From: Nitrososphaera viennensis EN76
Lineage (GTDB): Archaea; Thermoproteota; Nitrososphaeria; Nitrososphaerales; Nitrososphaeraceae
Assembly: GCF_000698785.1 (NCBI RefSeq)
Contig: NZ_CP007536.1
Span: 1,830,001-1,862,000, forward strand
Reading direction: 5' to 3'
DNA length: 32,000 nt
The notes under the pieces are model-generated. The model worked only from the letters and a program-made list of their open reading frames with translations, did no database searches and had not been told where the DNA came from. Every line of letters starts with the position of its first letter. Position 1 is the stretch's first letter. Both the position numbers and the translations under genes were made by a program. Shown in pieces: positions 20,664 to 22,595 of this stretch.

Positions 20664-21393
20664 GATCGAGGGCTACGGTCCCTGGACGCTCACGCTCGGC
20701 TACGACAGGGAGGCGCAGCTGCAGATGCTGCAGGCAAGAATCTACCATGACGTACAGCGCCTCTTCCACGAAAAGGACTGCCTCGTCTATTTCAACCGCT
20801 TTGACGAGTATTTCGCAATCACAAACGGCGTCACGGTCGCACAGCACGCGGAAATCGCGCACGCGCTTGCGATCCTCTACAATGACCTGAAAATGTCGAT
20901 GGCGATCGGCGCCGGCAAGACAGCGCTTGAGGCCAGCATGAGCGCATACAATGCAAGAAAGGAAAACAGGCTTGCTGATGAAAAGGCGCGGATATTCGGT
21001 TCTGCCGCTGCAAGCGGCGAAACATCGGCGCAGATAATGCACATCGACGTCGACAGCTCGACAAAGCTGACGGGCAGGCTGTCGCCGTATGAAGTGACAG
21101 CATTGGTAATGAAGCTGTACGGCAGGCTGGCAGAGGAGTTCCTGAAACTTGATGCGCTGACGTTCTTTCTTGGTGGCGACAACTTTATGGTAATCTCTAA
21201 CGGCGTGACGGGGGCGCAGGCCGACGAGGTGATAAAAAAGGTGACGGCAGGACTTGACGTCAAGTTCAACTGCGGAATCGGCATCGGCAAGAACGGCCGA
21301 AGGGCCGCAGAAGCAGCCACCAAGGCCCTCGACACGATCCGAGACATGCGCGACGAGGGCAAGATCCAGACGATCTATGAAATACGATGCTAG
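20641..21393 (+). CDS. arfA: GTP cyclohydrolase III (archaeal, FAPy-forming)
   Basis: MIQLTIIRIEGYGPWTLT, FFLGGDNFMVISNG and CGIGIGKNGRRA are collinear with the Methanocaldococcus MJ0145-type enzyme as I recall it. It overlaps ribH by 23 nt. Confidence 0.9.
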   Translation: MIQLTIIRIEGYGPWTLTLGYDREAQLQMLQARIYHDVQRLFHEKDCLVYFNRFDEYFAITNGVTVAQHAEIAHALAILYNDLKMSMAIGAGKTALEASMSAYNARKENRLADEKARIFGSAAASGETSAQIMHIDVDSSTKLTGRLSPYEVTALVMKLYGRLAEEFLKLDALTFFLGGDNFMVISNGVTGAQADEVIKKVTAGLDVKFNCGIGIGKNGRRAAEAATKALDTIRDMRDEGKIQTIYEIRC

Positions 21394-22595
21394 TAGTCAT
21401 TGAAAACGCAAGCATCCTCCTTGGTGAAAACCTGGAGCACATAGAGCGCGGCTATATTGAAATTGAAAATGGCATTATCAAGAACGCGGGAGAAGGCCGC
21501 TCTTCTGCCCGGGGAAAAAAGCTGGATGCAGGCAGCAGCTTTCTTGTCGTGCCCGGCTTTATCAACGCGCACACCCACATCGCCGACTCGATAGGCAAGG
21601 ACATCGCGGCAGGAAGGAGGCTTGACGCGCGGGTGCACCCCGTGTTTGGAGCAAAGAAAAAGATCCTCGAAAAGAGTCTGCCGGCGCACCTTGCCGCGAT
21701 GATAAAAAGCTCGGCTGTTTCCATGCTGCAGAAAGGGATAACGACGTTTGCTGATTTCCGCGAGGGCGGGCCTGAAGGCGTCCGGCTGCTGAAAAGCGCA
21801 ACAGCCAGCCTGCCGATAAAATGCATCGCGCTTGGCAGGGTGGACCACTACAGCAGCGACCCGGCAGGGATGGAGGGACTGCCAGCAAGTGCAGCCGCTA
21901 CTGCAAAGCAGGTGCTGGAAATAGCCGACGGCCTTGGCATCAGCGGCGCAAACGAAAACACGGACTCTGCACTTGAGCAGTACGGCGAGATGGCGGCGGC
22001 AAAACTCGTTGCCATACACGCGGCCGAGTCGGCCGAGACAGTGCAGTTTTCCAAGGATCACACCGGCAAAAGCGAAGTCGAGCGCATAATGCAACATCTA
22101 AAGCCGGACATCCTGGTGCACATGACGCACGCCACCGGCGACGAGATGTCGCTTGCAGCCGGCAAGGCCGGCATAGTGGTGTGCCCGCGCGCAAACGGCG
22201 TCCTTGGCGCCGGCCTGCCCCGCGTTGCAGAGATGCTAAAGCGCGGTTGCCTCGTTGCGATAGGCACGGACAACGTGATGCTCAACTCGCCGGACATGTT
22301 CCGCGAGATGGATTACCTCTGGAAGGCGTCGCACGCACAGGGCAACTTTATCGAACCCCGCGAGCTGGTCAAGATGGCGACTGCAAACGCGGCCAAGATG
22401 CTTGGCCTGAACAGCGGCTGGATAGCGCCCGGAAGGGCCGCAGACCTGATATTTATCGACAAGAGGCATGCTGACCTTTACCCGATGCACGACCCGTACG
22501 CGGCCATAGTGCACAGGGCCGGCGGGGACGCGGTACGTGCCGTGATGGCAGGCGGCCGGTTCGTTGCAGCAGGAGGGAGTCTTCTCTTATCATGA
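21387..22595 (+). CDS. Amidohydrolase-superfamily enzyme of the deaminase (chlorohydrolase, guanine/cytosine/MTA deaminase-like) subtype
   Basis: The metal and catalytic signature is NAHTHIADS (HxH), VAIHAAESAE (H-x-x-E), VHMTHAT and AIGTDNVM (D). It overlaps the upstream gene by 7 nt and the downstream gene by 4 nt (ATGA). Confidence 0.85.
   Translation: MLVVIENASILLGENLEHIERGYIEIENGIIKNAGEGRSSARGKKLDAGSSFLVVPGFINAHTHIADSIGKDIAAGRRLDARVHPVFGAKKKILEKSLPAHLAAMIKSSAVSMLQKGITTFADFREGGPEGVRLLKSATASLPIKCIALGRVDHYSSDPAGMEGLPASAAATAKQVLEIADGLGISGANENTDSALEQYGEMAAAKLVAIHAAESAETVQFSKDHTGKSEVERIMQHLKPDILVHMTHATGDEMSLAAGKAGIVVCPRANGVLGAGLPRVAEMLKRGCLVAIGTDNVMLNSPDMFREMDYLWKASHAQGNFIEPRELVKMATANAAKMLGLNSGWIAPGRAADLIFIDKRHADLYPMHDPYAAIVHRAGGDAVRAVMAGGRFVAAGGSLLLS

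Follow-up and report, generated by a model that had tools for sequence, protein, structure and literature searches.

The MJ0699/HVO_2483 protein family was proposed as the archaeal pyrimidine deaminase of riboflavin synthesis in 2010, and the proposal was repeated in 2017 and 2021 (PMC5397151, PMC8305020). Rodionova et al. reported in 2017 that Archaea lack orthologs of the deaminase domain of RibD and assigned the candidate, PyrD, to the RbkR regulon in 15 genomes (PMC5397151), and in 2021 Pfeiffer and Dyall-Smith named HVO_2483 and MJ0699 as candidates and called for experimental confirmation (PMC8305020). Two reviews from 2026 do not mention an archaeal deaminase. Here, we describe a 402-amino-acid (aa) amidohydrolase encoded at positions 21387 to 22595 (plus strand) of a 32,000-nucleotide (nt) stretch of the genome of Nitrososphaera viennensis EN76, an ammonia-oxidizing soil archaeon (contig NZ_CP007536.1, positions 1,830,001 to 1,862,000; the window), where the gene is located between arfA, encoding GTP cyclohydrolase III, and arfC, encoding a stand-alone reductase. 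The protein is very likely the pyrimidine deaminase of archaeal riboflavin and FO/F420 precursor synthesis. The original prediction, made from the letters of the window, had put the gene forward as a candidate for a missing archaeal step; gene context and phyletic pattern support the candidacy, but it is not new, as the assignment already exists as the prediction published in 2010, and the present work is a rediscovery.

Family membership and orthology

The amidohydrolase scored 327.8 bits against the NCBIfam model NF005552 (PRK07213, "chlorohydrolase"), passing the equivalog cut-off of 294, with residues 3 to 386 aligned to model positions 2 to 375, and it is therefore a member of this family; the second-best NCBIfam model reached 126 bits. 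NF005552 was likewise the best match for all 67 diverse family representatives, which were selected after searching 1.8 billion cluster representatives. In the protein collection, a profile search returned no named euryarchaeal matches, and MJ0699 was reached via a representative from Methanotorris igneus, its close homologs, and the members of their clusters. MJ0699 (UniProt Q58110) scored 589 bits on NF005552 and shares 36% identity with the N. viennensis protein over its full length (387 columns; BLASTP). Used as a query against the complete 2.53-Mb genome of N. viennensis, it had a single match, the amidohydrolase (E = 1e-53), which is also the only cog0402 protein of the genome. By sequence comparison, the amidohydrolase is the Nitrososphaera ortholog of MJ0699 of M. 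jannaschii. The identity of PyrD with the MJ0699 family was taken from the 2021 paper and from the SEED-derived name of the Methanocaldococcus lauensis ortholog, "Pyrimidine deaminase archaeal predicted." Compared with the described PyrD proteins, the N. viennensis enzyme is of the same length class, has the same motifs, is associated with rib genes in the same way, and probably belongs to the RbkR regulon; nothing essential distinguishes it from them, and the function of the whole family is a predicted one.

Gene neighborhoods in relatives

Loci from Nitrososphaeria were obtained from an 18-sequence search for relatives and span Nitrososphaera, Nitrosopumilus, Nitrosopelagicus, Nitrosotalea, Nitrosocaldus, Cenarchaeum, and others; other phyla were reached by genome searches. 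The order arfA-amidohydrolase-arfC was kept in all 80 of the Nitrososphaeria loci, wherever the flanks were present, and most showed the full order ribE-ribB-ribH-arfA-amidohydrolase-arfC. The placement in rib clusters that was to be checked in relatives is consequently not a matter of chance. Family members from elsewhere in Thermoproteota scored between 120 and 376 bits on NF005552, which was the top or only NCBIfam match in every case checked, and their genes were found in a variety of arrangements: ribB-x-ribH-arfA-gene, arfC-arfA-ribB-ribH-gene, arfA-gene, arfC-gene, gene-arfC, and the gene divergent from ribB-ribH-arfA. Because the linkage outlasts this much rearrangement, a functional tie between the amidohydrolase and the rib genes is indicated.

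In three Thermoproteota families, one of which includes a Bathyarchaeia metagenome-assembled genome (MAG), the amidohydrolase-arfC pair adjoins cofG and cofH. These two genes encode FO synthase, the substrate of which is 5-amino-6-ribitylaminouracil. ArfA, even at E values of up to 10, and lumazine synthase were not detected in two of the cofG/cofH-linked families, the genomes of which are 93 to 100% complete. As arfC, cofG, and cofH are paired with the amidohydrolase without ArfA, the amidohydrolase tracks the reductase and the consumer of the deaminated product and not GTP cyclohydrolase III.

Several genomes carried the amidohydrolase and ArfC, often with cofG/cofH, together with neither GTP cyclohydrolase II (PF00925) nor III (PF05165): G002, G028, G114 (family f3), G144, and G150 (family f34), and likewise 72 Thermoplasmatota genomes. 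Lumazine synthase was not found in f3 and f34 either, and the amidohydrolase-ArfC pair of these two families therefore seems to serve FO/F420 synthesis only. A different arrangement occurs in family f11 (genomes G010, G074, and G126; loci L137 to L139), in which the rib cluster consists of creatininase-arfA-arfC-ribB. The PyrD-like protein of this family is encoded elsewhere, is 354 to 364 aa long, and is very divergent, scoring 87 to 93 bits on NF005552, its only NCBIfam match.

Phyletic distribution

Co-occurrence of the amidohydrolase with arfC across archaea, part of a check suggested with the original prediction, held in samples from three phyla. In Thermoproteota, ArfC was present in 38/38 genomes with a strong family match, and such a match was absent from all 86 ArfC-negative genomes; neither full-length RibD nor GTP cyclohydrolase II was found in this sample. 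All 121 Methanobacteriota genomes contained a family member above the curated cut-off, and 120 of them contained ArfC. The 131 Thermoplasmatota genomes were divided: a strong family member was identified in 86 of the 95 genomes with only the stand-alone reductase and in none of the 32 with a full-length (fused, bacterial) RibD, which is the pattern expected if one deaminase displaces another. GTP cyclohydrolase III was absent from all 131 Thermoplasmatota genomes. GTP cyclohydrolase II was identified in 59 of these, including 23 of the reductase-only genomes, 20 of which carry the amidohydrolase. Other cog0402 paralogs, where present in the genomes examined, were distinct proteins of 420 to 450 aa that scored 85 to 130 bits.

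Fold, catalytic motifs, and proposed chemistry

The amidohydrolase contains the motifs H62-T-H64, H211-A-A-E214, H245, and G293-T-D295, as read from the window at the outset. Conservation of H62/H64, H211/E214, H245, and D295 across the 67 family representatives is either complete or at least 90%. HxH lies on strand 1, HxxE on strand 5, H on strand 6, and D on strand 8, which is the residue arrangement of cog0402 enzymes, and in a profile alignment NAHTH, HAAE, VH, and GTD align with the NAHGH, IHxHE, VHMTQ, and GTD motifs found in deaminases of solved structure. The family alignment was used to build an AlphaFold2 model (predicted local distance difference test [pLDDT] score, 95.7; predicted template modeling [pTM] score, 0.94), which, together with Foldseek comparisons, showed a (beta/alpha)8 barrel and an N/C-terminal beta-sandwich. 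Foldseek matched the model to 3LNP, 4V1X, 8IS4, and 4GBD with an E value of 1e-27 and a template modeling (TM) score of 0.86. All of the nearest solved folds belonged to cog0402 aminohydrolases or chlorohydrolases (TM, 0.8 to 0.86; approximately 20% identity), and the matches included 3LNP, AtzA, the isocytosine deaminase Vcz, methylthioadenosine (MTA)/S-adenosylhomocysteine (SAH)/adenosine deaminases, TrzN, TM0936, and guanine deaminase. The N. viennensis protein shares the fold and the HxH...HxxE...H...D set with the solved enzymes of this clade (guanine deaminase, 6OHB; the isocytosine/8-oxoguanine deaminase Vcz, 7WW2 and 8IS4; the MTA/SAH deaminases 4F0R, 4GBD, and TM0936 [1P1M]; AtzA, 4V1X; TrzN) but is shorter than them by 30 to 70 residues, and a common mechanism, in which a metal-activated water attacks the amidine carbon, would be expected. 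Guanine and isocytosine deaminases act on a 2-amino-4-oxopyrimidine, a ring that the riboflavin intermediate also carries, and since these enzymes use the same ring, the proposed deamination has a direct precedent within the cog0402 clade.

The same structural neighbors raise the question of whether the protein is instead a general deaminase of nucleobases or nucleosides, for example, of guanine, isocytosine, or 5'-deoxyadenosine/MTA/SAH, that has this as its main job or merely travels with the rib genes. Its nearest structures are indeed MTA/SAH/adenosine deaminases, AtzA, and guanine and isocytosine deaminases, and the genome has no other cog0402 protein. However, its score on NF005552 far exceeds that on any characterized family model, and the cog0402 paralogs found elsewhere are the distinct, longer proteins described above. 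A general deaminase would also leave unexplained the tight co-occurrence with the stand-alone reductase, its exclusion from genomes with fused RibD, and its independent clustering, time and again, with rib genes and cofG/cofH, and we regard this function as improbable.

For a pyrimidine deaminase of the riboflavin pathway, we infer both the substrate and the order of the reactions. A single divalent metal would be bound by H62, H64, H211, and D295 and would activate a water molecule, with E214 and H245 shuttling protons; attack of this water on C2 of the pyrimidine would release the 2-amino group as ammonia. The substrate would be 2,5-diamino-6-ribitylamino-4(3H)-pyrimidinone 5'-phosphate, which the neighboring ArfC produces, and would be converted to 5-amino-6-ribitylaminouracil 5'-phosphate, which after dephosphorylation would feed lumazine synthase (RibH) and FO synthase (CofG/CofH). 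The placement of reduction before deamination follows work on M. jannaschii ArfC cited by Rodionova et al. (PMC5397151). Family-specific conserved positions comprise D67, K71, K90, DFREGG (residues 123 to 128), CPRxN (266 to 270), N296, and R377; among these, D67, K71, K90, R125/E126, R268, N296, and R377 may bind the ribityl phosphate tail.

The deaminase domains of bacterial RibD/RibG (EC 3.5.4.26) and of yeast RIB2, which deaminates the ribityl form, act in the same pathway and remove the same 2-amino group as proposed here. In contrast to the (beta/alpha)8 barrel of the amidohydrolase, they have the cytidine deaminase (CDA) fold with an H/C-x-E...PCxxC zinc site. The amidohydrolase probably acts after the reduction, as RIB2 does, whereas RibD acts before it. 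It would represent a nonhomologous replacement for the CDA-fold deaminase domain of both enzymes.

Other deformylase and deaminase candidates

The original prediction had left open a second role, in which the amidohydrolase replaces ArfB as the hydrolase of the formamide in FAPy, the formylated product of GTP cyclohydrolase III, with the deaminase encoded elsewhere. ArfB (MJ0116) and the bacterial BrbF belong to the same pathway as the amidohydrolase and are likewise metalloenzymes that hydrolyze a C-N bond in a pyrimidine intermediate, but they differ from it in their creatininase fold, their deformylation reaction, and their phyletic pattern. The amidohydrolase gene directly follows arfA, with a 7-nt overlap, and HutF, from the same superfamily clade, hydrolyzes a formimino group. 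Furthermore, the only creatininase-family (PF02633) gene of the N. viennensis genome, located outside the operon (G000:C1:724767-725441; L001:1480-2190, minus strand), encodes a protein with a score of only 40.6 bits against the ArfB model, for which the cut-off is 180. The distribution of the family argues against this role. Of the 131 Thermoplasmatota genomes, 86 have a family member, yet none has GTP cyclohydrolase III, and in 20 of the carriers the enzyme used is GTP cyclohydrolase II. As the latter enzyme itself releases formate and makes no formyl intermediate, a formamide hydrolase would be without a substrate in those 20 genomes. The ArfA-less Thermoproteota families also retain the amidohydrolase with arfC and cofG/cofH, and M. 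jannaschii encodes both the characterized ArfB and MJ0699.

Creatininase-family proteins would offer another source of the deformylase. Within the Thermoproteota sample, each genome with ArfA also had such a gene, which lies directly beside arfA in genome G117 and in the f11 clusters, and BrbF, a distant relative of the creatininases, is a proven FAPy formamidase (PMC9478397). Despite its low score on the ArfB model, the creatininase gene of N. viennensis likely encodes a formamidase of the ArfB/BrbF type. No match to PF02633 was found by Pfam in the amidohydrolase, which is not of the ArfB type. With a creatininase gene elsewhere in the genome and the family common in genomes without GTP cyclohydrolase III, replacement of ArfB is very unlikely. 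The creatininase gene of N. viennensis directly follows, on its downstream side, a purU-like gene for a formyltetrahydrofolate deformylase (L001:2223-3149), such that two predicted formate-releasing hydrolases are adjacent at this locus.

A combination of both activities, with the Nitrososphaeria enzyme deformylating the product of GTP cyclohydrolase III as well as deaminating the ring, would explain why it always lies between arfA and arfC as well as the poor match of the only creatininase protein of the genome to ArfB, but we also give this little credence. That the protein is the pathway phosphatase, releasing the free pyrimidine from 5-amino-6-ribitylaminouracil 5'-phosphate, is extremely improbable: the step likewise lacks an assigned archaeal enzyme (PMC8305020) and the amidohydrolase superfamily includes some phosphoesterases, but both the single-metal HxH/HxxE/H/D set and the closest folds belong to aminohydrolases and not to phosphoesterases, the known enzymes for the step are phosphatases of the HAD type, and exclusion by the RibD deaminase domain would be unexpected, since organisms with RibD need a phosphatase too.

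Turning to deaminases of the CDA fold, Pfam assigned only Amidohydro_1 and Amidohydro_3 to the amidohydrolase and no PF00383, which places it outside the RibD/RIB2 group. A search of the N. viennensis genome for a RibD-type deaminase returned two PF00383 genes, neither of which is RibD-like; one is similar to dCMP deaminase/ComEB and the other has a weak TadA-like N-terminal domain. The TadA-like gene (G000:C1, L003:619-1878, minus strand) encodes a 419-aa protein in which the weak CDA-fold domain covers approximately 125 residues, with the remaining 290 or so having no family match.

Operon layout and candidate RbkR control

Coordinates of the genes in the window were taken from the list of open reading frames (ORFs), and their identities were assigned with Pfam and NCBIfam. 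All six genes are on the plus strand. The first, ribE (18852 to 19451; Lum_binding; TIGR00187, 226.6 bits), encodes a bacterial-type riboflavin synthase. It is followed by ribB, the first gene of the conserved core unit (19505 to 20194; PF00926, DHBP_synthase; TIGR00506), which encodes 3,4-dihydroxy-2-butanone 4-phosphate (DHBP) synthase, and by the lumazine synthase gene ribH (20199 to 20663; PF00885, DMRL_synthase; TIGR00114). The gene arfA (20641 to 21393; PF05165, GCH_III, 192.7 bits) overlaps ribH by 23 nt. The ATG of the amidohydrolase gene, the product of which matches Amidohydro_1 in addition to NF005552, sits within the end of arfA (...ATGCTAG), and its stop codon overlaps the start codon of arfC by 4 nt (ATGA). 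The last gene, arfC (22592 to 23248; RibD_C; TIGR01508, 204.9 bits against a cut-off of 186), encodes the 2,5-diamino-6-ribosylamino-4(3H)-pyrimidinone 5'-phosphate reductase; the protein aligns only to positions 143 to 334 of the RibD model and so has no deaminase domain. With these overlapping stop and start codons, the amidohydrolase would be made from a transcript shared with ribB, ribH, arfA, and arfC.

The tight packing claimed in the original prediction, with overlaps of 23, 7, and 4 nt, agrees exactly with the ORF coordinates, and the statement that the operon holds neither an ArfB-like gene nor a CDA-fold deaminase was borne out, as Pfam and NCBIfam detected no creatininase or CDA-fold domain in any of its genes. 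The operon had also been described as starting at ribE. This can be refined for ribE, which is adjacent to ribB here but is located 2 to 5 kb from it in some Nitrososphaera relatives (loci L005, L006, and L047).

Between ribE and ribB, a motif search identified two abutting CTAC-N10-GTAA sites (19437 to 19472), at -68 and -50 relative to the start of ribB, as a candidate RbkR operator. Exact TTAC-N10-GTAA does not occur in the window, and the tandem pair emerged once mismatches were allowed. The pair fits the consensus for the Thaumarchaeota RbkR operator, which is a tandem TTAC-N10-GTAA (PMC5397151). Sites of the form (C/T)TAC-N10-GTA(A/G) were present at matching offsets before ribB in 59 of 68 Nitrososphaeria loci, 39 of which contained both, and an rbkR-type kinase gene was found in the genome. 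From the location of the operator-like pair and the detachment of ribE in relatives, we infer that ribB-ribH-arfA-amidohydrolase-arfC is the core regulated unit, and this unit is probably under RbkR control.

Upstream of and divergent from ribE, a minus-strand gene occupies positions 17807 to 18800. It resembles the histone deacetylase/acetoin utilization family (motif ...DIDAHHGDG...), and the ORF list extends it spuriously over ribE, to 19432.

Weighing the deaminase assignment

A number of observations weigh against assigning the amidohydrolase as the pyrimidine deaminase. No rib genes were found near the amidohydrolase gene in Methanobacterium or in one Thermoplasmatales MAG. Some ArfC-positive lineages have only divergent family members (87 to 137 bits), and a few genomes show none. 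Related genomes are not independent, and the genome counts given above, while describing the pattern, overstate its statistical weight. Since it is the only cog0402 protein of its genome, the enzyme may also, or instead, deaminate another substrate, such as a purine or a nucleoside. Finally, the literature searched contained no biochemical or genetic test of any family member, in agreement with the statement in the original prediction that the deaminase has not been firmly identified in archaea.

As the hypothesis is an old one, the value of the present analysis lies in the bench test that it prepares and not in the idea. The exclusion of the family by fused RibD, its independence from GTP cyclohydrolase III, and its pairing with arfC, cofG, and cofH are reasons to expect such a test to succeed and can guide the choice of organism. 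Among the core catalytic steps in the archaeal synthesis of riboflavin and the F420 precursor, deamination of the pyrimidine is the one that lacks a proven enzyme. If the family is confirmed, this gap would be closed, a second, unrelated fold would be established for the reaction as a case of nonorthologous displacement of the RibD deaminase domain, and the misleading labels "chlorohydrolase" and "amidohydrolase family protein" would be replaced on thousands of archaeal genes.

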